The position numbers and the translations under genes are program-made. Of a stretch of 64,000 nt of DNA, positions 40,673 to 59,254 are shown piece after piece; the stretch's first letter is position 1; the number at the start of each line of letters is the position of its first letter. The notes beneath the pieces are model-generated. The model saw nothing but the letters and a program-made list of their open reading frames with translations. It was not told where the DNA came from and did not search any database. Source of the stretch: Candidatus Gottesmanbacteria bacterium (lineage in GTDB: Bacteria > Patescibacteriota > Microgenomatia > UBA10105 > UBA927); NCBI GenBank assembly GCA_963790805.1, contig CAWBPL010000002.1, positions 448,696-512,695 of the forward strand, read 5' to 3'.

Positions 40673-40775
40673 TTTAATTTTAATAGTGAGCCTATTATAT
40701 CAGGAAAAACGACACGGTGGCTTCCAAAGTTATTCTATTTCTGGTATCGTACAGGGGACAATTTAATTGCCTAAA

Positions 40776-40880
40776 CTACCGAAAGGTAGCATGGCAGAAA
40801 AACCGGTAAAGAGCTGTAAGCTCTCGTCAGAGCATCTTTACCGGTCATGCAAGGAAACTTGCATGGGTGACGCAAGTCAT
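40776..40880 (+). ncRNA. candidate structured RNA leader (four consecutive hairpins, three with GNRA tetraloops)
   Basis: CTACC-GAAA-GGTAG (40776-40789). 11-bp helix ACCGGTAAAGA...TCTTTACCGGT (40802-40845). CATGCAAG-GAAA-CTTGCATG (40846-40865). TGAC-GCAA-GTCA (40868-40879). The GNRA loops exist only on the + strand. Confidence 0.45.
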
Positions 40881-40900
40881 CACTGGCGGGAGCTTTCTGT

Positions 40901-48257: not shown

Positions 48258-50123
48258 ATGAAAGATCGAATAGTTCAAAAATATAGTGAAGAGTTAACGA
48301 AACTCGGAATTCATCACGAGGTATTTGAGCATCCGCAACTTATTTCTGTTGAAAAAGTGCAAAAGTATCTGGGGTATGGAATGGATGATTCTGCGGCAAC
48401 GCTGGTGATGAAAGCAGGGGATCGATTTGTCGCAATTATTCGTAGGGGAGACACGAAGCTCGATAGCGAAAAAGTCAAAAAATTATTAAACGTTACGACG
48501 CTTCGTATGGCGACGGAAGAAGAATTTTCCGATGTTACGGGTGTGCCAAGTGGAGCGGCGAGTGTGTATATTCCCAATATTCCAACGTTTATTGATAAGC
48601 GGATTTTTGAAAAACAATACATTAATGCAGGATCCGGCAGTCTTTTATATACCATTCGATATAAAGCAGAAGATTTAAAAAAGATTCCAGGGATAACCGT
48701 TGTTAATGTAACAAACGCAGATAACGCTTTAACCCCTGTAGAAAAATTAGAGGTGCCTAAGGGTAAACGGCTCTATTCTGCTATTACGCCCAGTGGTGAT
48801 GGGACACTCCATATCGGCAACTATCTCGGTGCGGTGCGGCAGTTTATTGAACTTGCAAAATACAATGAGTGTTTTTTTCAGCTGGCGACCATTCACGGAC
48901 TCACAACCATTCAGGATCAAAAGCAACTGGCTGGAAACATCGAGCGGTTAACTCTCAACGAACTGGCGCTTCTTGGAGAAAATCCTAATATTTATTTCTG
49001 TTATCAATCAGATATTCCCTATCACACCGAGCTCCAATCGATTCTCAATAATGTGACACCCTTGGGACTGCTTAAGCGTGCGCATGCGTATAAAGACAAA
49101 CTTGGTAAAGATGTCATGGAAGATGATATAAACGTCGGTTTGTTTAGTTATCCTATGCTCATGGCTGCTGACATATTGATTTATAAAGCCACGCTCGTGC
49201 CGGTGGGGAGGGATCAAAAACAGCACGTGGAAATAACGAGAGATATAGCAGAGCGGTTTAATAGGATTTATAAGAAGAAAGTATTTCCGCTTCCTGATCC
49301 TTATATACCCGAAGAAGTAGCGGTCATTCTCGGTACCGATGGGCAGCGAAAAATGAGTAAAACGCTTGGAAACATCATAAGTATTTTTGAAGATGAGGAA
49401 GTTATTAGAAAACAGGTAAACGGAACGTTTACCGATCCGACCCGGAAACACGTGACTGATCCTGGTCATGTTGAGGGAAACATGGTATTCACCTACCTCG
49501 ACTTTTTTGGTGAAAAGGAAAAAGTCAGTGAACTCAAGGAGCTCTATAAAGCAGGTAAAGTAAGCGACGTCGAAGTGAAAAAATATTTATTCGAAGCACT
49601 TATGAAGACATTCGCTCCCGCGAGGGCCCGGTATGCGGATCTCGTTGCCAACCCTGAAAAAGTGAAAAAGATTTTAGATCGGGGACGTGGGCACGCACTA
49701 GAGGTAGCATCCAAGACGATGGCAGAAGTGCGTGAGGCGGTCGGGTTTACGAATCGATATTCATTGGGACAACCATCAACGCAGGTTACTGGTAATAGCA
49801 AAATCACAATCGATGATTTTGCCAAAGTAGATGTACGGGTAGGAAAAGTTGAGGCAGCGGAAAATGTCGAAAAGAGCGAAAAACTCATCCGGCTGCATGT
49901 GGATTTCGGGAGTGGCGGCAAGCGGATTATTTTTACCGGCGTCCGGCAGTTTGGCTATACGGCGGAATATTTTACCGGTAAACAATTTTTCTTTGTGTTT
50001 AACCTTGAGCCGCGAAAGATGATGGGGGAGGAAAGTCAGGGAATGATTGTTGCGGTTGATGGCTCTCAAAAACCCATCTTCTTGTCAGGTGAAGGAATGC
50101 CGCTGGGGGCACGAATTCGATAA
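48258..50123 (+). CDS. trpS: tryptophan--tRNA ligase fused to an N-terminal YbaK/ProX-like editing domain and a C-terminal Trbp111/EMAPII-like tRNA-binding domain
   Basis: aa 1-165: ATLVMKAGDRFVAIIRRGDTKLDSEKVKKLL...GVPSGAASVY (YbaK-type). Core: ITPSGDGTLHIGNYLGA (HIGH), VPVGRDQKQHVEITRDIAERFN, KMSKTLGN. C-terminus: IDDFAKVDVRVGKVEAAENVEKSEKLIRLHVDFG (OB-fold tRNA-binding). AGGAGG RBS at 48249-48254. Confidence 0.8.
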   Translation: MKDRIVQKYSEELTKLGIHHEVFEHPQLISVEKVQKYLGYGMDDSAATLVMKAGDRFVAIIRRGDTKLDSEKVKKLLNVTTLRMATEEEFSDVTGVPSGAASVYIPNIPTFIDKRIFEKQYINAGSGSLLYTIRYKAEDLKKIPGITVVNVTNADNALTPVEKLEVPKGKRLYSAITPSGDGTLHIGNYLGAVRQFIELAKYNECFFQLATIHGLTTIQDQKQLAGNIERLTLNELALLGENPNIYFCYQSDIPYHTELQSILNNVTPLGLLKRAHAYKDKLGKDVMEDDINVGLFSYPMLMAADILIYKATLVPVGRDQKQHVEITRDIAERFNRIYKKKVFPLPDPYIPEEVAVILGTDGQRKMSKTLGNIISIFEDEEVIRKQVNGTFTDPTRKHVTDPGHVEGNMVFTYLDFFGEKEKVSELKELYKAGKVSDVEVKKYLFEALMKTFAPARARYADLVANPEKVKKILDRGRGHALEVASKTMAEVREAVGFTNRYSLGQPSTQVTGNSKITIDDFAKVDVRVGKVEAAENVEKSEKLIRLHVDFGSGGKRIIFTGVRQFGYTAEYFTGKQFFFVFNLEPRKMMGEESQGMIVAVDGSQKPIFLSGEGMPLGARIR

Positions 50124-50187: not shown

Positions 50188-51030
50188 ATGGATTCCGTTC
50201 CTTCATCAGTTGTGCCTCCAGCGAGCTCTTCCACCTCATCGCCGCCGGCTGATATGCCGACGCCTCCTGTCCCCCCCACACCGTCGGATTCTTTGGTGGT
50301 CCCCCCAGAACCCCCTCCGGCGCCCGCTGAAGCAACAAATCAACAAAGCTTTTCAGTATCACGTGGAGGAAAAAGAATTGGCAAAAAGCCGTCAGTCGGA
50401 GTAATTCTCACGATTATCTTTCTTCTTTTTGTTACGTTACCCTTAACGGTCATGTTTGTGGGAAATAAAAATCAATCGACTGATGTGCGAAGTAGAGCGG
50501 CGTATGCCCTTGGTCACACCTGTGATCCTTCAGCCGGTTCGGATGGCGGATGCGGGTCAGGAGAAGGATGTTCCTGTAGAAACGGTTCGTGTGCGTGTGG
50601 TCTTACCGGCGGACAGCAACCGTGTTATCACACGATATGTCCAGTAAACTATTCGTGTAATGGTTCGGGCGATGGTTCATATTGCAGTCCGAATACTCCG
50701 ACATCTCCTAACAATCCTCCGTCAGGCAGCACATCAACTCCGACTCCCACGTCCACTACAGCGCCCTCTTGTCCGGCGGTACAAGTGTATAGAAATAATG
50801 TCTTAGTAACTGATTTAAACACCTTGGCGGTCGGGGATACTATAACGGTTGTAATACCGGGTGGCACCGCAACACAGGCGCAGGTTCGTCTCAATGGCGG
50901 AGGGTGGAATGTTCAAACGACAAAAGATGCAAACGGAAATTTTGACATCACCTTCCCGATTTTAGTAAACGCCGGTGTTACCACAGGTACCATCGAATAT
51001 CAGGTGTATATCAATGGAACGTGGTATTAA
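50188..51030 (+). CDS. hypothetical Pro-rich / TM / Cys-rich surface protein
   Basis: PPADMPTPPVPPTPSDSLVVPPEPPPAP, TM (VGVILTIIFLLFVTLPLTVMFV), then a Cys-rich segment. Confidence 0.45.
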   Translation: MDSVPSSVVPPASSSTSSPPADMPTPPVPPTPSDSLVVPPEPPPAPAEATNQQSFSVSRGGKRIGKKPSVGVILTIIFLLFVTLPLTVMFVGNKNQSTDVRSRAAYALGHTCDPSAGSDGGCGSGEGCSCRNGSCACGLTGGQQPCYHTICPVNYSCNGSGDGSYCSPNTPTSPNNPPSGSTSTPTPTSTTAPSCPAVQVYRNNVLVTDLNTLAVGDTITVVIPGGTATQAQVRLNGGGWNVQTTKDANGNFDITFPILVNAGVTTGTIEYQVYINGTWY

Positions 51031-51041
51031 GCTATTTGTGG

Positions 51042-51437
51042 TTAGCTATTGAGGTATTGTTTCACTTTATTCACTACCTGATCCGGGGTCTGATCGCTTT
51101 TGATCATATAGCCTCTGGCCCCGAGTGCTATGGCCCGAACGACTGCGGAGTCATGATCCATATTGGATAAAATGACGATAGATTTGTTGGGTTTCATTGG
51201 TGGCGTTTCCTCTTTAAGTTTTTGAAGAATCTTTAAGCCGTCAATTTTTGGAAGCATAATATCCAAAAGCACCAGATCATAGCCTCCTGCAAACATTTTT
51301 TGATATCCTTCTTCGCCATCTGCCGCATGGTCAACGTCTAACCCTTCAGATTCGAGAATTTCGATATAGAGATCACGCAGGAATTGATCGTCTTCAACGA
51401 TAAGGATTTTTTTTGCGGGTATGGGTTGATCAGTCAT
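51042..51437 (-). CDS. single-domain response regulator (CheY-like receiver)
   Basis: ILIVEDDQFLRD..., phospho-acceptor region DLVLLDIMLPKIDG, conserved K in GARGYMIKS. Confidence 0.85.
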   Translation of the reverse strand: MTDQPIPAKKILIVEDDQFLRDLYIEILESEGLDVDHAADGEEGYQKMFAGGYDLVLLDIMLPKIDGLKILQKLKEETPPMKPNKSIVILSNMDHDSAVVRAIALGARGYMIKSDQTPDQVVNKVKQYLNS

Positions 51438-51489
51438 GGAGCTATTGTTAGTGTAGCGTACTTATTTTGTAGTGTAAAGGAATATACAG

Positions 51490-53637
51490 TTAACCAACCG
51501 GTAACGTAACGGTAAACGTTGATCCCCTCCCGAGCGTTGATTGAACGGATATCGTTCCGCCATGAAGCTCGACATATTGTTTTGAAATATATAATCCCAG
51601 TCCCGATCCGCTTCCGGTGATAGTCACATAAGAGCCTTCAAGTCGACCGAATTTGGAAAATAATTTCGGCATATCATCGGGATGAATTCCTCGGCCAGTA
51701 TCGATGACAGAAAATTCTATGAATTTATCCCTGGGTATAATCCGTAGGGTTACCACTTGATTCATCGGAGTAAATTTAAAGGCGTTTCCGATAAGGTTTT
51801 CCAATACCTGATGGATTTTTTCCCGATCCATCGATATGAGAGGTAATACGTCGGGGACTTCGAGAGACCATGAAAGGTGTAGTTCGGTGGCTTTCGCCTG
51901 AAATTCGTTTTCTATATCACGGCCGAGCTGTACTACATCAACCGGTTCTTTTTTGAGTTTTACCTTGCCGCTTTCGATTCTTGATATATCAAGCATTTCA
52001 TTGACAAGATGAATGAGGCGTTCCGTAGAAATATAGACGCGGTTAAGATATTCTTTTGCTTTAGGTTCAAGAGGGCCAGCTTTATCGTTTAACACAAGCC
52101 ACGCATAGCTTTTGATTGCGGTCATGGGCGTGCGAAGCTCGTGGGAGGCAAGTGACACAAACTCGTCTTTGAGTTTATCGACAAGCTCGAGTCGTTCGTT
52201 GACTGTTTTGAGTTCGCTGGTTGCCTTGTCGATTTCCTCTTTTAAGGTGACATTAAATCTTCGAATTTCCTCAAACGCAAGCGCATTTTCAATGGCAACT
52301 GCGACTTCGGGAGTAAGTATTTCAATTACGTCTAGATCCTGAACAGAATATATATCACCGGACGATTTTTCTCCGAGAATGAGAATTCCAACTTGTTTGC
52401 CTTCTGTTCGAAGATGGGCCACCACTGAAACATGGAGTTTGCGCAATATATCTTTTTCCTGTCCTTCTTTTAATTCTTCAAACACCAGCATGTTTCTTGT
52501 TTGGCTGATGATTTTTATTTCTTCCTCGTCGAGAGTGGGCGGTGTTTCAAATCCTTCACTTTTTACGTCAGCAATAAGATCGTCTTCAAAAAGAATAAAG
52601 GCAGATTTTGTAATGCGAAGATGACTGTTTAATTCCTGAAGAACCCCATGGGTGACATCATCAAGGCGGAGCGTAAATGCCATGATTTTACTAAGATTTC
52701 CCAATAAATCATCGGTGTTATAGCGATTTTTGAAAAAAATTCTATCAGTGATTCGTTCCAGAAAACGTTGGAGCGGGTGAAATGAAAAACTTGCCGTAAT
52801 TGTGATAAGAGACAGAATGATAAATTGAGAAATTGTCAGATTGAGCTTGGCAAATTTATCGCCGATGGTAAATAAAAGCCCGATATACGCACTGATCACC
52901 AAAAAAAACAAAAGTGTGTACGAAGCGGTTCTTGCAACCAAAAACCGAACATCCATGAGCCGATGCTTGATGATTGCATATGAGGTGAGCCCGAGAAACG
53001 CGAGCGCATAGAGCGGGGCCAACGGTTCGAACGATAAATTATTGGCTACCATAACAGGGATAAGAACCGTAATCGTCAGAAGTCCGAGCATGGTAAGAAT
53101 ACCAAGCATGACATAGCGAAGTTGTTCTTTGACTATTCCCGTTGTTTGTCTCCATCGTTTTAGGAGTATATATATTGCACACACGCTGCAAAAAAGCGCA
53201 TAGAGCGCAAAAAGTCCCATACCCCAGCCGGGAACGGGTATTGCTTTGCCGCCTGTCGTATCGACCGCTATGAACGTAAAGGGCGAAACAGCAAGAGGAA
53301 GAAGTAAGATAGCAATAAAAAGAAGTACGGTAAGCGCCGATTTTTTTAAAGGAATCTTATCATTCGGGAGCGTGTGAGCAAGAAGAAAAAAAAGCGTTAC
53401 CTGCGGCACCGCAAAAAATATACTGAGTCTGCCCAAGAGGAGGCTGTAGCGAAAAAAAATAGGGACGACGCCGAGAATACTGACAATTAACCATATTGAG
53501 GTAATCCATGAAAGTGCGCTTAATAATTTATTGCTGGCGCTTTTGGGGTTGTTTTTTGTAACGATGATCGCAACAAATGAGTTAGCTCCAACGACAAAAG
53601 CGAGGATGATTAATTGTAGGGCAGTTAAGACATTCAT
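51490..53637 (-). CDS. sensor histidine kinase (polytopic N-terminus, GAF-like, HisKA, HATPase_c)
   Basis: About 8 N-terminal TM helices. H-box SHELRTPMTAI. N/G boxes NLIGNAFKFT, DTGRGI, GSGLGLYISK. Confidence 0.85.
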   Translation of the reverse strand: MNVLTALQLIILAFVVGANSFVAIIVTKNNPKSASNKLLSALSWITSIWLIVSILGVVPIFFRYSLLLGRLSIFFAVPQVTLFFLLAHTLPNDKIPLKKSALTVLLFIAILLLPLAVSPFTFIAVDTTGGKAIPVPGWGMGLFALYALFCSVCAIYILLKRWRQTTGIVKEQLRYVMLGILTMLGLLTITVLIPVMVANNLSFEPLAPLYALAFLGLTSYAIIKHRLMDVRFLVARTASYTLLFFLVISAYIGLLFTIGDKFAKLNLTISQFIILSLITITASFSFHPLQRFLERITDRIFFKNRYNTDDLLGNLSKIMAFTLRLDDVTHGVLQELNSHLRITKSAFILFEDDLIADVKSEGFETPPTLDEEEIKIISQTRNMLVFEELKEGQEKDILRKLHVSVVAHLRTEGKQVGILILGEKSSGDIYSVQDLDVIEILTPEVAVAIENALAFEEIRRFNVTLKEEIDKATSELKTVNERLELVDKLKDEFVSLASHELRTPMTAIKSYAWLVLNDKAGPLEPKAKEYLNRVYISTERLIHLVNEMLDISRIESGKVKLKKEPVDVVQLGRDIENEFQAKATELHLSWSLEVPDVLPLISMDREKIHQVLENLIGNAFKFTPMNQVVTLRIIPRDKFIEFSVIDTGRGIHPDDMPKLFSKFGRLEGSYVTITGSGSGLGLYISKQYVELHGGTISVQSTLGRGSTFTVTLPVG

Positions 53638-53645
53638 AATTGATG

Positions 53646-55595
53646 CTACGTATCAAGAAACGAAATAACAAGTTTATTGAACTGTTCGCTTTGTTCAATG
53701 GAGGGTATGTGGCCGGCATCGGGGATAATGACGAATCGACTATGAGGAATACGACGTACCACCGGTTGAACGATGTCAGGTGACGTGAGTTTGTCATATT
53801 TGCCCCAGAGAACGAGTGTTTTATTCGAAAGACGTGGTAATGCGTCAGCCATGTCGAGCTCTTTCGGTATGCCGGTGAAACCCGAAAGCCGGCTGATAAA
53901 TAACAGATTGTGAGAGGTTTTCATGGTTTCGTAAAAATATTCTATAAACTCCTGAGGGAACGGAAATTTTGGATTATGGAAGACATCTCGCATAAACATT
54001 TCGACGTTTTTATTGGAACGCACGGGGTTCAGCATAGTTTTGGCCATGATTCGGGCAAATGCATGGATCCCCATAATGCGATCGGGAATTTTCAGGCGAT
54101 TGGTAAATCCAATAGCGTCAACGAGGACCAGTTTATCAATGAGTTCTGGGTGTTTCAGTGATACATTTATTGCCGTCCAGCCTCCTATCGACGATCCCAC
54201 GATGTGCGGCTTTGTAATATTTAATTTTTGGACAAACGCATCAACAACATCGACAAGATCTTTTTGAAGATCCATCGATGCAAAATCAATGTGGGATGAC
54301 CTTCCAGCGCCGGGAAGGTCAATTGCATACACCAGAAAGTGCTTTGCGAGTTCTTGAATATTTGGATACCATTGTCCCCACCCGATATTGCCGCCGTGGA
54401 TAAGAAGAAGAGGCTTGCCCTTGCCGGCGATTGCATAATTGATGACGTGATTGTCGATATTCATGTGTCTGGTCGCAATGGGCGTTTGAATAATTTCTCT
54501 AAGCGCCTGTTCGGTGTTTGTGGGTTCAATCACATGTTCAACAGGTCTTCGTGGTGTGTGATACGGCGACGTTTCACTATATCCCATACGGAAAAAGAAT
54601 CGCGCGTTCATGTTGTGAAAGTGAAAAGTCGAAGCAAGAAATTCATGTGCTTTTGGATAATAGGTGATTGAATGCATGGGTGTGCATGAAATATTGTGTG
54701 AAGTCAGATACAGGGTAACGCGTTCATACAGTCTTCCCGCGGATAAAGATGAGACCGTGGTATTACCGGTTACCGCAATGACTCCAATGGCAGGACAATT
54801 GTATAAAGCTTCATAATCTTTTTTGCCTAAAATGGTACTGATGGCCCGCAATCGAGGAATGAGAAGTTTTCCCGCAACGGAAGCAGGCGGTGGCAAACCA
54901 ACGACAAACCCCGGCATACCATCGAATGCTTTGGAATTATTGAGCTTTAACCATTGACCTAACTCGCGGCCAAACAGGGGGTGGCTCGCTTCGTTTGTTA
55001 CCGCTTCCTGTTGTAAAACGGCGGATTTATGAATGGACATCGGATTATGAGTTACGAATACCCGTGACTGGCCATTTTGCATTCGGGATAGTGCAGTAAG
55101 AATTGTTGAAGGTAAAGGTGCGGGAGAATAGAGAAGCTTATTTGAATAGCGTTTCGTGATATATGGGGCGAGCCGTGAAAGATCAGGGTTCGGTTTGCTT
55201 GTTATGTTAAAAAGAAGGCGGATAACGGGTTTTTTCGCGACGTTCGTCACGTGTATGGTTACTGCGTAATCCCATCGCGCTGCTGCCACTTCGATATTGG
55301 CAATACAACAACCGATACCTAAAAGAAGATGGCGTCCGGTGGGATCGGTATGTTTCAGCTGTCGCGTCCAGTCCGGATGTATGGTGAGCGTATTCTTGTT
55401 GATTGTAAAATTCCACGGCTGTGTGTTGTGAAGCGACGGCGCGAGTATTCCCGCTTTAACAAAAAATGCAATTTTTTCACGTGTGCTACTGGTTTTGGGG
55501 AATGCCCGATAATCCCAATTCCATGCTTCATAATTCGGTTGTTTTGCCATAATGCCCTCGATTTCTATTATGTCTATTTCATCCGGATTTCTCAA
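53646..55595 (-). CDS. fusion protein: Acg-family tandem nitroreductase-like FMN domain + C-terminal alpha/beta hydrolase
   Basis: N-terminus AGILAPSLHNTQPWNF (Acg/nitroreductase signature) over about 370 aa. C-terminus PLLLIHGGNIGWGQW, nucleophile elbow GSSIGGW, late DAGH. Confidence 0.6.
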   Translation of the reverse strand: MRNPDEIDIIEIEGIMAKQPNYEAWNWDYRAFPKTSSTREKIAFFVKAGILAPSLHNTQPWNFTINKNTLTIHPDWTRQLKHTDPTGRHLLLGIGCCIANIEVAAARWDYAVTIHVTNVAKKPVIRLLFNITSKPNPDLSRLAPYITKRYSNKLLYSPAPLPSTILTALSRMQNGQSRVFVTHNPMSIHKSAVLQQEAVTNEASHPLFGRELGQWLKLNNSKAFDGMPGFVVGLPPPASVAGKLLIPRLRAISTILGKKDYEALYNCPAIGVIAVTGNTTVSSLSAGRLYERVTLYLTSHNISCTPMHSITYYPKAHEFLASTFHFHNMNARFFFRMGYSETSPYHTPRRPVEHVIEPTNTEQALREIIQTPIATRHMNIDNHVINYAIAGKGKPLLLIHGGNIGWGQWYPNIQELAKHFLVYAIDLPGAGRSSHIDFASMDLQKDLVDVVDAFVQKLNITKPHIVGSSIGGWTAINVSLKHPELIDKLVLVDAIGFTNRLKIPDRIMGIHAFARIMAKTMLNPVRSNKNVEMFMRDVFHNPKFPFPQEFIEYFYETMKTSHNLLFISRLSGFTGIPKELDMADALPRLSNKTLVLWGKYDKLTSPDIVQPVVRRIPHSRFVIIPDAGHIPSIEQSEQFNKLVISFLDT

Positions 55596-55620
55596 TTACT
55601 CTGTTGTGCCCAGATGTGTT

Positions 55621-56703
55621 TTAGAAGAATTTAGAAAATTCAATGCGGTAGCGTCCGGAAGGAAGATGTTCATTCAGTATAATTTTCCGTGCAAAATACG
55701 CGCCTAAACCGGCGCTTACCGTGACAGTGCTTGATACTTGAGGTCTTCCAACGAGTGTTTTTCCGATGAGAGCTACAGACGAGAGTGCTTTTGCAGGGAC
55801 ATTATGTTTTCCGACGAGAGCAACCGCGTATTTGTGCTTGTCTTCTTCAGGGTGCTGTAAGATGGTTTCCGGCAGTTTTCCGATGACTCCATTAAAGAGT
55901 GAAAGATTAGGAGTGGAATCATATCGCTCAACATCAATAAGTATGCTGTCTGCGAGATTTGCCATGGAGATAACGGGTACGTTCGATGCTCTTGCGGCAA
56001 GGCGCAGTTTAATTTTCATCGCAAAATCATCGATGATTTCAAATACCACGCGCGGTTTGGGTGAGGCAGAAACGAACGATGACACATTGTTCTCGTCTAA
56101 TCCGGTGGGGAAGAGATGAAGATGAACATATGGATCGACTTCATAGATCTGTTGAGCGGCAATAGTGATTTTTGGTAAACCGACGTGATGAAGGCCCGCC
56201 CGTAATCTGTTAAGATTTGTCGTTTCAAGGCGGTCAAACTCAGCGAGTTTGATTTGCCCGCCGATTCCCTGATATGCCATGCCGACCGCAAGACTGCCTC
56301 CGACCGACAATCCAATGATACCAATGCATGAGGAATATAAACGCTGTTGTTCTGTTTCTGTAATAATATTTTTATTTCTGTTGGTCCGAAGAAGAAAATA
56401 CTCTTTCGCGTTGACGGAATGGATTAAATTGCCGTTCCAAGGGCAATAGACCCAGTTACCCCGTTTGTTAAATGGAAGATTATTTCGTCGATGGATAAAC
56501 TGTCGGCATTGTTTTTGATAATCCGATGAGTTTAACAGCGAGGGATGCGTAATTTTAAACACTTCTTCACTTTGTTGATCGTATAACTCATGCGTATGCC
56601 ACACACGATATCTGGATTTAAGCATACGAACGTCACGGTCCGTATATGTGCCCTCAAAGAGTATCAGCGGTTTCGAGTTTATTTCCGTTATTTTTTTACC
56701 CAT
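55621..56703 (-). CDS. ThiF/MoeB/E1-like adenylyltransferase-fold protein with N-terminal extension (Rv1355c-like N-half)
   Basis: IGIIGLSVGGSLAVGMAYQGIGGQIKLAEFDRLETTNLNRL is the ThiF-family nucleotide-binding motif. Confidence 0.6.
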   Translation of the reverse strand: MGKKITEINSKPLILFEGTYTDRDVRMLKSRYRVWHTHELYDQQSEEVFKITHPSLLNSSDYQKQCRQFIHRRNNLPFNKRGNWVYCPWNGNLIHSVNAKEYFLLRTNRNKNIITETEQQRLYSSCIGIIGLSVGGSLAVGMAYQGIGGQIKLAEFDRLETTNLNRLRAGLHHVGLPKITIAAQQIYEVDPYVHLHLFPTGLDENNVSSFVSASPKPRVVFEIIDDFAMKIKLRLAARASNVPVISMANLADSILIDVERYDSTPNLSLFNGVIGKLPETILQHPEEDKHKYAVALVGKHNVPAKALSSVALIGKTLVGRPQVSSTVTVSAGLGAYFARKIILNEHLPSGRYRIEFSKFF

Positions 56704-58205
56704 TTTTGTTTCCCTCCCGGCTGGAAATGCGTTGGATGTTCATACGGCCAGAATGTGAGTTTCGGTATGGTTTGTTCGGGATATTCTTCACGGGTTTTCC
56801 GATATTCGGAATTTTCCGCAACCAGCCTTCGGATAATTGCCTCTGCAGTGGAAGATCGGAGGGTCAGAGATTCTTTGGTATTTGGTCTTAATTCAATGTG
56901 AATATTGAGTTGTTGATGGGCCTTTATATCATAGGAAACAATCATGGTAAATTTGCCCGTAAGTTGTTGTTCAAACTGTTTTTCCTGAAGGGCTTTGCGT
57001 ATAGTTTCCGGATAAATCTGGAATGCAAAAAAACTTACGGAGAAGTCACTTCGTTCATAAACGTATACAAACGGAAGATTCCAGATGGTATTTGTGATGC
57101 CTGCATTTTTTGCTTCCTGATTCAGATTCACATCAAGTTGTTTCAAATTCGTTGTGACAGAATCAAGTGTAAAGACGCCGCCGTGATCCTTAAGATCATA
57201 GCGAACGAGTGGAATTCCGCTATAGGAAGAGCACAGAAGATTTTTTTCCTGGCACTCAAAATAAAACATTTCGGGCAGATATTGCGTCAGTGTCGGAAGT
57301 TTTGTGCTTTGCCCGAAGAGCGCTTCGTATATGCGTTCGTCTTCAATTGCCCGTCGCCGAAGAAGAATTGACAAGGGAGTCTCGTGAGACATAGTTCCTA
57401 AATCTACAGTTCCATAATGGTTGAGTGTTGAAGTGTATGGGTTTGTTAGACCGGCAGTTTTTATAACATAATCCCGGAATGTTTCACTGAAGCCTTCGGC
57501 GGAAAAAATAAACCCCAGATTATAGTTGTTCCAGTTGACGCCATATGTTTTTGCATCATCGAGTATATCTTTGAGAAACGGAGCGTAGCTGCCTATTATT
57601 GTTTGGTCAAAGTGAGGTCCGAGATTTTTGACTGCCTTAATAATTTCCAGCTTATTAATTCCCGGAGAAATAATAGTTAACGGATACTTTCGCTCCTGCA
57701 GTATCGAAAGCGCCTTGAATGTAAAAACGCCGCCGATCCACGCTCCCATAGGGAACCCGATGATATACAGAGTCGACCGTTTGTCGATGTGAAAATTGTT
57801 AAGAAGATACATCTCAGCCGTTGCGGCGTATTGTAAATCCTGTTCCTGTTGCCGGGGAAAGTAAAACGGTTCACCGGTAGAACCGCTGGTCGAGGCTACT
57901 GTCCAGCTTTGATCGTTCATTTTCCCGTCCCAGCAGAGGGCTTCAAGCGGGTATTTCCGAAGGTAACTATTTTTATCAACTGCCGGAATCTGTTGGAAAT
58001 CGCGTATCGTTCGGATCAAGGACGCATGAATGTTGTGTTGTTTGAGAAAGTCTTTATACGCAGGTACGCGGTCGGCCATCGAATGAAAAAGCGTGAGTAC
58101 CCGTTTTTCTCCACGGCGTATCCAATACTGTTCAGGTTTTGTTTTTAATTGTCGCAGCAAAAAAGGAACGGTATGAAGGGATGTTGGAAATGCATCGGTC
58201 CTCAT
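56688..58205 (-). CDS. PaaK/F390-synthetase-like adenylate-forming enzyme (ANL superfamily)
   Basis: VASTSGSTGEPFYFPR matches the phenylacetate-CoA ligase type AMP-binding motif. 16-nt overlap with the downstream gene. Confidence 0.6.
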   Translation of the reverse strand: MRTDAFPTSLHTVPFLLRQLKTKPEQYWIRRGEKRVLTLFHSMADRVPAYKDFLKQHNIHASLIRTIRDFQQIPAVDKNSYLRKYPLEALCWDGKMNDQSWTVASTSGSTGEPFYFPRQQEQDLQYAATAEMYLLNNFHIDKRSTLYIIGFPMGAWIGGVFTFKALSILQERKYPLTIISPGINKLEIIKAVKNLGPHFDQTIIGSYAPFLKDILDDAKTYGVNWNNYNLGFIFSAEGFSETFRDYVIKTAGLTNPYTSTLNHYGTVDLGTMSHETPLSILLRRRAIEDERIYEALFGQSTKLPTLTQYLPEMFYFECQEKNLLCSSYSGIPLVRYDLKDHGGVFTLDSVTTNLKQLDVNLNQEAKNAGITNTIWNLPFVYVYERSDFSVSFFAFQIYPETIRKALQEKQFEQQLTGKFTMIVSYDIKAHQQLNIHIELRPNTKESLTLRSSTAEAIIRRLVAENSEYRKTREEYPEQTIPKLTFWPYEHPTHFQPGGKQKWVKK

Positions 58206-59254
58206 ACAAAGGTTTGAGATATTTCCTGCGCAAGAGCATCAGCAACAACATTTGTTGATTTGTGGCTTCGTTTGCTTTTTTCAATAATCGAAGTTAAGGT
58301 TTTTTTAATCGTCGCAACTTTGCGTTTTACCCGATCGACATCTGGTCGTTTTTGTTCAAACTCGTCAACGACCGCCATGAGCCCTCCGGCATTGATGACA
58401 TAATCAGGCGCGTACAAAATGCCCATTTTATAGAGCTCGTTTCCGACTTTTTCACTTTCGAGCTGACTGTTGGCGCTTCCGGCGATGATGCGCGCATGGA
58501 TTGAATGGATGCTTGTATGATTAAGGACGCTACTTAATGCGCAGGGAGAAAATATATCAACGCGCTCTGAAATAATGGCGTCAGGTCTAACAGGTTCCAC
58601 ATCGGGAAAAGAGTGCTTTACTGTTTCAATGGCCCTATCGTTAATATCAGTTACATAGATTTTTTTGGCTTTTCCGTAGAGAAATTTCAGAAGTCCGGTT
58701 CCCGTTTTTCCCAGCCCCTGAATGGCGAACGTTCTTTCGCGAATATCTGATGTCCCGAATATTTCTTTACAGCTCACCTGTATTCCGTAAAAAACTCCAA
58801 GCATGGTAAGGTCGACAACTTCATAATGCACGCCGACCATATACGGACTGTAGCGCGCCATAATGGCAAGATCAGCGTTATTTACTCCGACATCGGCGCC
58901 GGTAATAAAATGCCCGCCCAAATAATTGACGTGTTGGGCATACGATTTAAGAAGTGCCGTGCGGGAAATTTTGTCACTTTTATTGACGATGACGGCTTTT
59001 GCTCCGCCATGATGAAGGCCGGCGAGGGCGGATTTGTACGTCATAATTTTAGAAAGCTTTAGGGCGTCCCTCAGTGCGTCAGCGTCTGATGCATATTTCC
59101 AGATGCGCGTTGCCCCAAATGCGGGTTGTTTTAACCCTCCCCGATGAATTGCAATGTATGCGGTAAGATTGACAGATTTGTCCATGATGCAGGATACAAA
59201 ATGGTGATCGTCATATTCAGGTAATTCGCTGATAGTAAGTAGATCGGGTTTCAT
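58202..59254 (-). CDS. Glu/Leu/Phe/Val dehydrogenase family enzyme (Leu/Phe dehydrogenase-like)
   Basis: GATRIWKY...KSALAGLHHGGAKAVI (catalytic Lys region) and the Rossmann motif FAIQGLGKTG. 4-nt overlap with the PaaK-like gene. Confidence 0.75.
   Translation of the reverse strand: MKPDLLTISELPEYDDHHFVSCIMDKSVNLTAYIAIHRGGLKQPAFGATRIWKYASDADALRDALKLSKIMTYKSALAGLHHGGAKAVIVNKSDKISRTALLKSYAQHVNYLGGHFITGADVGVNNADLAIMARYSPYMVGVHYEVVDLTMLGVFYGIQVSCKEIFGTSDIRERTFAIQGLGKTGTGLLKFLYGKAKKIYVTDINDRAIETVKHSFPDVEPVRPDAIISERVDIFSPCALSSVLNHTSIHSIHARIIAGSANSQLESEKVGNELYKMGILYAPDYVINAGGLMAVVDEFEQKRPDVDRVKRKVATIKKTLTSIIEKSKRSHKSTNVVADALAQEISQTFV

Follow-up and report, generated by a model that had tools for sequence, protein, structure and literature searches.

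Six genes on the minus strand of a 64,000-nucleotide stretch of DNA from a Candidatus Gottesmanbacteria bacterium (contig CAWBPL010000002.1; the whole stretch is called the window here) form one unit at positions 51042-59254, with four enzyme genes followed by genes for a sensor kinase and a response regulator (Table 1). We propose that these genes are a conserved module of the Candidate Phyla Radiation (CPR; Patescibacteria) that makes an oxazolone-type molecule and is coupled to a two-component sensor. Oxazolone-type small-molecule biosynthesis is the probable role of the enzymes; for the full model, sensor included, we consider the case evenly balanced. The product could instead be a ring-opened N-acyl-dehydroamino acid, also derived from two amino acids. 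We observed the domain identities of the proteins, the family membership of the ThiF-like protein and the flavin oxidase, the co-conservation and natural fusions of the genes, and the mutual exclusion of their deaminating enzymes. On the most economical reading of these sequence data, the module would pair the synthase of a hydrophobic small molecule that is prone to hydrolysis with its receptor.

The ThiF-like protein and the flavin oxidase

OxzB from Pseudoalteromonas rubra was the first oxazolone synthetase to be described (bioRxiv 10.1101/2020.06.11.147165). [quoted passage not shown] TyzB/TyzC and OxzB carry out the same reactions on tyrosine or phenylalanine (PMC10404671; bioRxiv 10.1101/2020.06.11.147165; PMC12596934). 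According to a 2025 review, no other kind of ThiF-like enzyme is known to have a small-molecule substrate (PMC12596934).

The ThiF-like protein of the window belongs with these cyclases. It has the Pfam ThiF domain over residues 110-248, after a family-specific N-terminal extension of ~110 amino acids, and it scores 272 bits (E 1e-80) against NF005901 ("Rv1355c family protein"). The match runs from residue 35 to 358 against profile positions 36-337 and takes in most of the N-terminal extension; the next-best family has an E value of 8e-19. The protein is also 34% identical over 279 amino acids (E 9e-46) to an annotated Rv1355c-family protein from a plasmid of Rhodococcus qingshengii. Its predicted structure (mean predicted local distance difference test, pLDDT, of 89) has the E1/ThiF fold, and the adenylation motifs are invariant (GLSVG, D157, NLNR at 163-166, K178, and D225). 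These features place it in the OxzB/TyzB/TrzS clade with its adenylation motifs intact. A preliminary description of this DNA, made from the sequence alone, had compared the neighbouring ThiF-like and nitroreductase-like genes to the fused Rv1355c/MoeY architecture of Mycobacterium, and this comparison was correct and proved to be the key to the cluster. Related loci cover more of the family model: in Roizmanbacteria, a fusion of the ThiF-like protein to the oxidase (761 amino acids) scores 382 bits against NF005901, with a match from position 11 to position 645 of the 722 in the model, and in a distant variant of the cluster (L091), separate ThiF-like (347 bits) and oxidase (173 bits) proteins together span the whole model. 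We also considered a defence system and rejected it, as the PADLOC matches for the ThiF-like protein were weak and of a generic E1 kind.

The oxidase forms the N-terminal half of a natural fusion with a hydrolase. It scores 199 bits against the Acg family model NF047509, which equals the cut-off, and its flavin mononucleotide (FMN) motif, PSLHNTQPW, lies at residue 53. It aligns throughout with the oxidases of the other clusters and with the FDO half of the Rhodococcus Rv1355c-family protein. The FMN motif (APS..N.QPW) is invariant in this alignment, as are G95, N100, R149, W215, G287, and R349; in all, the Rhodococcus family member shares the motif and seven other invariant positions. As in the known oxazolone synthetases, a flavin oxidase accompanies the cyclase, adjacent to it in the window and fused to it in Roizmanbacteria.

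The C-terminal half of the fusion is an alpha/beta-hydrolase (Pfam Abhydrolase_1, E 2e-30) with a GxSxG motif at residue 467 (GSSIG). Its best matches in the PDB are the meta-cleavage hydrolases HsaD and BphD (89 bits). In Roizmanbacteria the hydrolase is encoded by a separate gene. It is an accessory part, found in about a quarter of the clusters.

Distribution and co-conservation

The preliminary description regarded the cluster as an orphan, which was wrong, because the gene set is widespread in CPR/Patescibacteria. Database searches with the PaaK-like protein return over 2,590 homologues, and the top 120 share 55-71% identity with it. With one representative per 50% cluster, 1,763 sequences match at E < 1e-3, of which 531 also pass E < 1e-30. 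A pattern scan with one genome per species found the ligase in at least 162 species, almost all of them CPR. We compared the window proteins by tblastn to the best 80 of the 162 species loci, and the counts below refer to these. Every one of the 80 comes from a CPR/Patescibacteria metagenome-assembled genome; record titles such as "uncultured Gammaproteobacteria" look like placeholder names. The lineages include Saccharimonadia, Magasanik-, Doudna-, Roizman-, Woyke-, Adler-, Lipton-, Kaiser-, Nomura-, and Paceibacteria.

A ThiF-like gene lies within 3.5 kb of the ligase gene in 77 of the 79 assessable loci, and a homologous kinase with a seven-transmembrane (7TM) region is encoded directly downstream of the enzymes in 62 of 65. 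The oxidase was found less often (48/65, missing from 17/65), and the hydrolase in 16 of 60. A receiver-only regulator (median length of 126 amino acids) is present in 38 of 59 loci, either downstream of the kinase gene or divergent and upstream of the cluster. Where no oxidase was detected, the kinase gene can follow the ThiF-like gene directly (loci L019, L025, L038, L040, L045, L057, L062, and L064). The pathway of such clusters may end with the saturated oxazolone, which is more reactive, or they may use an oxidase that is encoded elsewhere.

The order and strand of the genes differ between loci, so the association is not merely inherited synteny. All of the enzymes are also joined to one another by natural fusions. 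Besides the fusions already mentioned, we found a fusion of the dehydrogenase to the PaaK-like ligase (847 amino acids), the ligase fused to the ThiF-like protein in either order (863 amino acids with the ligase first and 880 with the ThiF-like protein first), and a triple fusion of dehydrogenase, ligase, and ThiF-like protein (1,242 amino acids). An arrangement that recurs in 80 species loci and as fusions is far beyond chance. The preliminary description suspected one functional unit and noted that a lack of co-conservation would speak against it; the genes are co-conserved, which favours one system, and the fusions bear out the suspicion as well.

The gene upstream of the ligase varies in kind. 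Among the 80 loci, 32 have an ELFV dehydrogenase, 37 have a class I/II aminotransferase, and none has both; 11 have neither, and most of these are truncated upstream. The distant variant L091 encodes an aromatic ammonia-lyase of the HAL/TAL/PAL type in the dehydrogenase position. (This locus, L091:4758-7954, also encodes an additional 7TM and GAF protein without kinase domains.) Dehydrogenase, aminotransferase, and ammonia-lyase are different kinds of enzymes with a common function, which is to convert an amino acid to a nitrogen-free carboxylic acid.

The dehydrogenase itself has the Pfam domains ELFV_dehydrog_N and ELFV_dehydrog. Its best NCBIfam match is Trp_DH_ScyB (270 bits, below the cut-off of 600), and its best PDB matches are leucine dehydrogenase (3vpx, 229 bits) and tryptophan dehydrogenase (5b37, 205 bits). 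In the substrate pocket, G119 and L292 replace A113 and V291 of leucine dehydrogenase, and the aligned tryptophan dehydrogenase has the same residues as the window protein. The glycine is found in 32 of 32 homologues from the clusters and the leucine in 26 of 33. We take the Gly/Leu pair to be the signature of phenylalanine dehydrogenases as well, and so the pocket points to an aromatic or bulky substrate; this fits both the ammonia-lyase variant and the known oxazolones, which are aromatic. We propose that the dehydrogenase would supply a 2-oxo acid, probably an arylpyruvate. In some Saccharimonadia (L060:2498-3727, and also L072 and L079), the gene directly 5' of the PaaK-like gene encodes an aromatic-type monooxygenase that depends on flavin adenine dinucleotide (PF01494, 409 amino acids), which suggests hydroxylated variants of the product.

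Proposed pathway, sensor, and alternatives

The PaaK-like gene is the most conserved of the cluster and is often fused to the ThiF-like gene. Its product has no Pfam match and only weak N-terminal matches to PaaK, F390, and FlxY models. The P-loop (TSGSTGEP) lies at residues 106-113, and the C-terminal G497 and K499 are invariant. When we compared predicted models to the PDB with Foldseek, the best match of its AlphaFold model (pLDDT of 82) was PaaK1 (2y27; TM score of 0.77, E 6e-20). It shares the fold of PaaK at an identity of only 13-15%, and it scores 26 bits against TIGR02155, the PaaK equivalog model, which has a cut-off of 646, so it is not a member of that family. ClxA (9s45), which was solved with 3-amino-4-hydroxybenzoate and its adenylate, is also among the structural matches. 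Enzymes of the NatL2/ClxA type have the PaaK fold, form ester or amide bonds directly, and transfer an aromatic-acid adenylate to a second substrate molecule without coenzyme A (CoA), so that ClxA offers a structural precedent for a PaaK-type enzyme that makes such a bond itself. The window ligase has this fold in common with ClxA and NatL2, which belong to benzoxazole pathways, but the identity is ~14% and the substrates and partner enzymes differ.

In our proposal, the PaaK-like enzyme would convert the deaminated acid to an activated form and use it for the N-acylation of a second amino acid. In all of the described systems, the ThiF-like protein and oxidase are paired with an acyl-CoA-dependent N-acyltransferase (OxzA, TyzA, TrzA, or an N-acyl amino acid synthase, NAS). 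The clusters described here have no such partner: tblastn searches of the window and 87 loci with a TrzA-like protein from Rhodococcus and a ThiF-linked GNAT protein from Streptomyces returned only noise (E > 1), and there is no N-acyltransferase Pfam domain among the called neighbours of the clusters. The ligase would then stand in for the acyl-CoA-dependent N-acyltransferase.

In the proposed pathway, an amino acid that is probably aromatic would first lose its amino group, which would leave an arylpyruvate or, where a lyase takes this step, an aryl-acrylate. Next, the PaaK-like enzyme would adenylate this acid and join it to the amino group of the second amino acid to give an N-acyl amino acid. 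The ThiF-like enzyme would adenylate the N-acyl amino acid and close the oxazolone ring, and the flavin oxidase would then desaturate the C-alpha/C-beta bond to leave an exocyclic double bond; for these two steps, we rely on the published biochemistry of OxzB, TyzB/TyzC, and TrzS. Where it is present, the hydrolase may open the ring or trim the product. Finally, the kinase would sense the hydrophobic product through its 7TM and GAF regions and phosphorylate the receiver-only regulator. The order of dehydrogenase, ligase, and ThiF-like protein in the triple fusion is the order of these proposed steps.

Among the closest known systems is TrzA/TrzS (Rv1356c/Rv1355c) of M. tuberculosis, M. smegmatis, and Rhodococcus (PMC12856293), which has the same NF005901 cyclase and flavin oxidase. 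These are fused in TrzS, as in the Roizmanbacteria cluster, but split in the window. The aromatic amino-acid substrate of TrzA/TrzS resembles the one that we propose, and the trz genes also lie near signalling genes (cyclic di-GMP enzymes in M. tuberculosis and a GGDEF gene on the Rhodococcus plasmid). On the R. qingshengii plasmid pLP1 (L088:1692-6016), the Rv1355c-family gene is accompanied by a gene for a hypothetical protein of 260 amino acids and by the GGDEF gene, which echoes the trzAS neighbourhood of M. tuberculosis. In contrast, clusters of the window type lack TrzA and carry the PaaK-like ligase together with one of the three deaminating enzymes instead; the fusion to a hydrolase and the conserved association with a 7TM kinase and receiver are also peculiar to them. 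In TyzA/TyzB/TyzC (Rv2336/Rv2338c/Rv2337c; PMC10404671), the cyclase and oxidase are separate proteins with neighbouring genes, as they are in the window. The Tyz and OxzA/OxzB pathways make 4-arylidene oxazolones (tyrazolones and phenazolones) from N-acyl aromatic amino acids, but they draw the acyl group from fatty acyl-CoA via the N-acyltransferase, they have no linked sensor kinase, and they occur in large-genome Actinomycetota and Pseudomonadota. The same pair of ThiF-like and nitroreductase genes also occurs with NAS genes, in other phyla, in the clusters for the N-acyl dehydrotyrosines known as stieleriacines, thalassotalic acids, and kyonggic acids (PMC12479983). The products isolated from these clusters are ring-opened N-acyl-2,3-dehydroamino acids (PMC12479983), a form that the window hydrolase might also yield; the NAS clusters rely on their synthases, and neither a hydrolase nor a ligase or kinase is dedicated to them.

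The kinase has the Pfam domains HisKA_7TM (residues 13-230), GAF (a weak match), HisKA, and HATPase_c, with about 7-8 hydrophobic segments in residues 9-280 and an H-box (SHELRTP) at residue 498. The regulator has the Response_reg domain at residues 11-121 and no other domain. Together they have the parts of a two-component system, that is, a 7TM sensor, a HisKA/HATPase core with its H-box, and a receiver. As the regulator lacks an output domain, it cannot act alone as a transcription factor for the operon. The kinase gene is linked more tightly to the ligase and ThiF-like genes than the oxidase or the hydrolase is, and a 7TM kinase also adjoins the distant variants L091 and L093. This near-constant linkage suggests that the product is a signalling molecule. 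A version of the enzyme set from outside the CPR, in Marinamargulisbacteria GCA_003265895.1 (L090:4842-11799), also speaks for a signalling link: its oxidase, PaaK-like, ThiF-like, and hydrolase genes have no histidine kinase beside them but adjoin genes for a PP2C/SpoIIE phosphatase with a multi-pass membrane region and for an slr1658-family regulator. The authors of the OxzB and TrzS studies have both suggested that oxazolones may be signals (PMC12856293; bioRxiv 10.1101/2020.06.11.147165), and the TrzS authors consider the physiological role of oxazolones to be unresolved (PMC12856293). That the kinase senses the product of the pathway is our tentative reading of the gene linkage, and we put it somewhat below an even chance.

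There are precedents for such an arrangement. In CqsA/CqsS and LqsA/LqsS/LqsR, the synthase for a hydrophobic molecule derived from an amino acid and an acyl group is encoded beside a polytopic sensor kinase, and the Lqs system of Legionella has a regulator without a DNA-binding domain. The chemistry is different (these molecules are alpha-hydroxyketones) and the sequences are unrelated, so the analogy is one of function only.

Several observations weigh against this proposal. No product has been observed, and the chemistry is wholly inferred. All of the matches to NF005901 are below its equivalog cut-off of 476 bits, which was defined for the full fusion. The oxidase is nearer to the Acg subgroup than to the C-terminal half of Rv1355c (73.5 bits), and its direct match to the Rhodococcus Rv1355c-family protein is weak (26% identity over 107 amino acids, E 1e-5), so it is the multiple alignment, the fusions, and bridging sequences that place it in the family. 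As the oxidase is undetected in about a quarter of clusters, desaturation is not obligatory. Also, the known oxidases need O2, whereas an anaerobic life is common among CPR bacteria. That the PaaK-like enzyme forms an amide directly is a prediction, and it could instead form a CoA thioester or use another acceptor. As for the sensor, the linkage of the kinase gene is no proof that the kinase binds the product, and the regulator has no output domain. Finally, BLAST and hhalign comparisons found no homology between the transmembrane region of the Marinamargulisbacteria phosphatase and the 7TM region of the kinase.

The main rival to product sensing accepts the same chemistry, on identical evidence, but holds that the oxazolone or N-acyl amino acid is not the ligand of the kinase. 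The two-component system would only control or accompany production, its kinase would sense something other than the product (a host cue, for example), and the product would be a membrane, stress, or antimicrobial compound. Biosynthetic operons frequently adjoin their regulators, antibiotics induce oxazolones in Proteobacteria and the tyz locus of M. tuberculosis has been tied to oxidative stress (PMC12856293; bioRxiv 10.1101/2020.06.11.147165), and N-acyl tyrosine derivatives can be antimicrobial (PMC12856293). However, a receiver-only regulator cannot by itself switch the operon on, the kinase is kept with the ligase and ThiF-like genes in 62/65 loci, more strictly than the oxidase (in 48/65) or hydrolase (in 16/60), and it is almost certainly cotranscribed downstream of the enzymes rather than forming a separate regulatory unit. 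We regard this explanation as unlikely but far from negligible. Another explanation would change the product: the PaaK-like enzyme could be an ordinary acyl-CoA ligase for an aryl-acetate or aryl-pyruvate, with an acyltransferase elsewhere or a different carboxylate as the substrate of the ThiF-like enzyme. Its closest structures are true CoA ligases (PaaK1/2, BT_0428, and 2-hydroxyisobutyryl-CoA ligase), and the Joint Genome Institute labels its homologues as phenylacetate-CoA ligase. We consider this distinctly improbable given the remoteness of the enzyme from PaaK in both identity and model score, and because an acyltransferase, which was found neither in the window nor in the 87 loci, would have to be unlinked. 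The fusions of the ligase to the ThiF-like protein, with or without the dehydrogenase, also argue that the product of the ligase goes straight to the cyclase.

The remaining explanations assign the ThiF-like protein to another kind of pathway. In the maturation of ribosomally synthesized and post-translationally modified peptides (RiPPs), an E1-like protein and a SagB-like flavin dehydrogenase modify a precursor peptide, as in thiazole/oxazole-modified microcins (TOMMs), microcin C, and pantocin. The ThiF-like model also resembles AclA, PaaA, and MccB, its N-terminal extension could in principle bind a peptide, and the nitroreductase fold is common to azoline dehydrogenases (bioRxiv 10.1101/2020.06.11.147165). 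However, the match to the oxazolone-synthetase family (E 1e-80) compares to ~1e-16 for other ThiF families, the partner enzymes act on free acids and amino acids, and the gaps of 8-70 nucleotides in the window leave no space for a precursor. The preliminary description, which raised the likeness to TOMM and pantocin systems, had itself seen no YcaO domain or obvious precursor. Both absences held up: the cluster lacks YcaO, and no small open reading frame is conserved in or beside it across the 80 loci (the recurrent matches are antisense shadows of the aminotransferase gene). The RiPP reading is not supported, and we think that it is very unlikely. We give even less credence to the degradation of aromatic amino acids or phenylacetate, or to sulfur transfer of the ThiF/MoeB (MoeY) kind. 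PaaK is a catabolic enzyme and the hydrolase is nearest to the C-C hydrolases HsaD and BphD, but the cluster contains no further paa or ring-cleavage genes and the hydrolase occurs in a minority of loci. Rv1355c was historically called MoeY, but it was found by experiment to be an oxazolone synthetase and not a molybdopterin enzyme (PMC12856293). The ThiF-like protein scores only 30-59 bits against ThiF and MoeB models with cut-offs of 150-630, which puts it outside the sulfur-carrier families, and there is no small beta-grasp gene of the ThiS/MoaD type and no rhodanese domain in the cluster. The strict linkage to a sensor kinase would be unusual for such degradative or sulfur-transfer pathways.

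The preliminary description recognized no described pathway in this combination of enzymes. The pair of ThiF-like protein and oxidase is in fact a described core, and it is already known in kind; we did not find the full set with the ligase, the deaminating enzyme, and the 7TM kinase in the literature that could be searched, and these additions appear to be new. In that literature we found no work that links CPR bacteria with oxazolones, ThiF, PaaK, or 7TM kinases, and no report of an acyltransferase replaced by a ligase and an interchangeable deaminating enzyme, of an optional hydrolase fusion, of a restriction to CPR (plus Margulisbacteria), or of a near-obligate linkage of a 7TM sensor kinase to a ThiF-like protein and oxidase.

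It is possible, though we find it doubtful, that many CPR lineages share a self-contained form of chemical communication in which an oxazolone or N-acyl-dehydroamino acid is made only from two amino acids and ATP, by a new ligase-based route, and is read by the 7TM kinase. If so, the regulator would act on attachment, pili, or host interaction, for example; no system of the autoinducer type would have been described in these minimal epibionts before, and the kinase would be the first receptor assigned to an oxazolone. The discovery of oxazolone synthetases dates only from 2020-2025, and the cluster gives a handle on the role of their products: because the synthetase genes are tied to one family of sensor kinases in more than 60 species, the idea that oxazolones are signals can be tested with a candidate receptor. 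The cluster also predicts a new route to N-acyl amino acids, by a PaaK-like ligase that is fed with a deaminated amino acid. CPR organisms appear to lack fatty-acid metabolism and much of CoA metabolism, and the ligase route would suit them. That very small genomes retain a six-gene module for a specialized metabolite and its sensing bears on how these bacteria perceive each other or their hosts.

Gene layout and neighbouring features

Table 1. Features of the six-gene cluster (positions in the window)
Feature	Positions	Strand	Description
ELFV dehydrogenase	58202..59254	-	350 aa
PaaK-like adenylating enzyme	56688..58205	-	505 aa
ThiF-like protein	55621..56703	-	360 aa
Nitroreductase-type oxidase::hydrolase fusion, open reading frame	53646..55595	-	649 aa from TTG start
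Flavin oxidase domain (N-terminal half of fusion)	54516..55550	-	Acg/FDO type, nitroreductase superfamily
Alpha/beta-hydrolase domain (C-terminal half of fusion)	53646..54491	-	serine hydrolase, GSSIG
Sensor histidine kinase	51490..53637	-	715 aa; 7TM, GAF, HisKA, HATPase
Single-domain response regulator	51042..51437	-	131 aa, receiver only

The four packed enzyme genes lie on the minus strand where the preliminary description had placed them, and all five of its enzyme types hold, by Pfam, NCBIfam, and motifs or, for the PaaK-like enzyme, by its motif and predicted structure. We recovered the overlaps of 4 nucleotides (58202/58205) and 16 nucleotides (56688/56703) that it reported, as well as the gap of 8 nucleotides between the stop codon of the hydrolase and the start of the kinase gene at 53637. 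Its gap of 25 nucleotides between the ThiF-like and oxidase genes holds if the TTG codon at 55595, a start chosen mechanically, is used. This is probably not the true start. A Shine-Dalgarno sequence (GAGGG) lies 5 nucleotides upstream of the ATG at 55550, and the oxidase homologues align from this ATG onward, so the gap is probably 70 nucleotides and the fusion protein 634 amino acids. The kinase gene is almost certainly cotranscribed with the enzyme genes. A scan of the 50-60 kb part of the window for promoters and terminators gave matches that were no more common than in shuffled sequence.

Elsewhere in the window, there is a full-length match to the LOOT RNA (Rfam RF03000) at 40768-40881 on the plus strand, with a score of 87.6 bits against a gathering score of 46.4. 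The plus-strand gene at 48258-50123 encodes a protein of 621 amino acids with a YbaK-type editing domain, a class I tRNA synthetase core of the Trp/Tyr type, and a C-terminal tRNA-binding domain, and this three-domain architecture is unusual for synthetases of that class. Between it and the cluster, and convergent with the regulator gene, a plus-strand gene at 50188-51030 encodes a protein of 280 amino acids that is rich in proline, serine, and threonine, and also in cysteine; it has a single hydrophobic segment, matches nothing in Pfam, and could be a surface protein.

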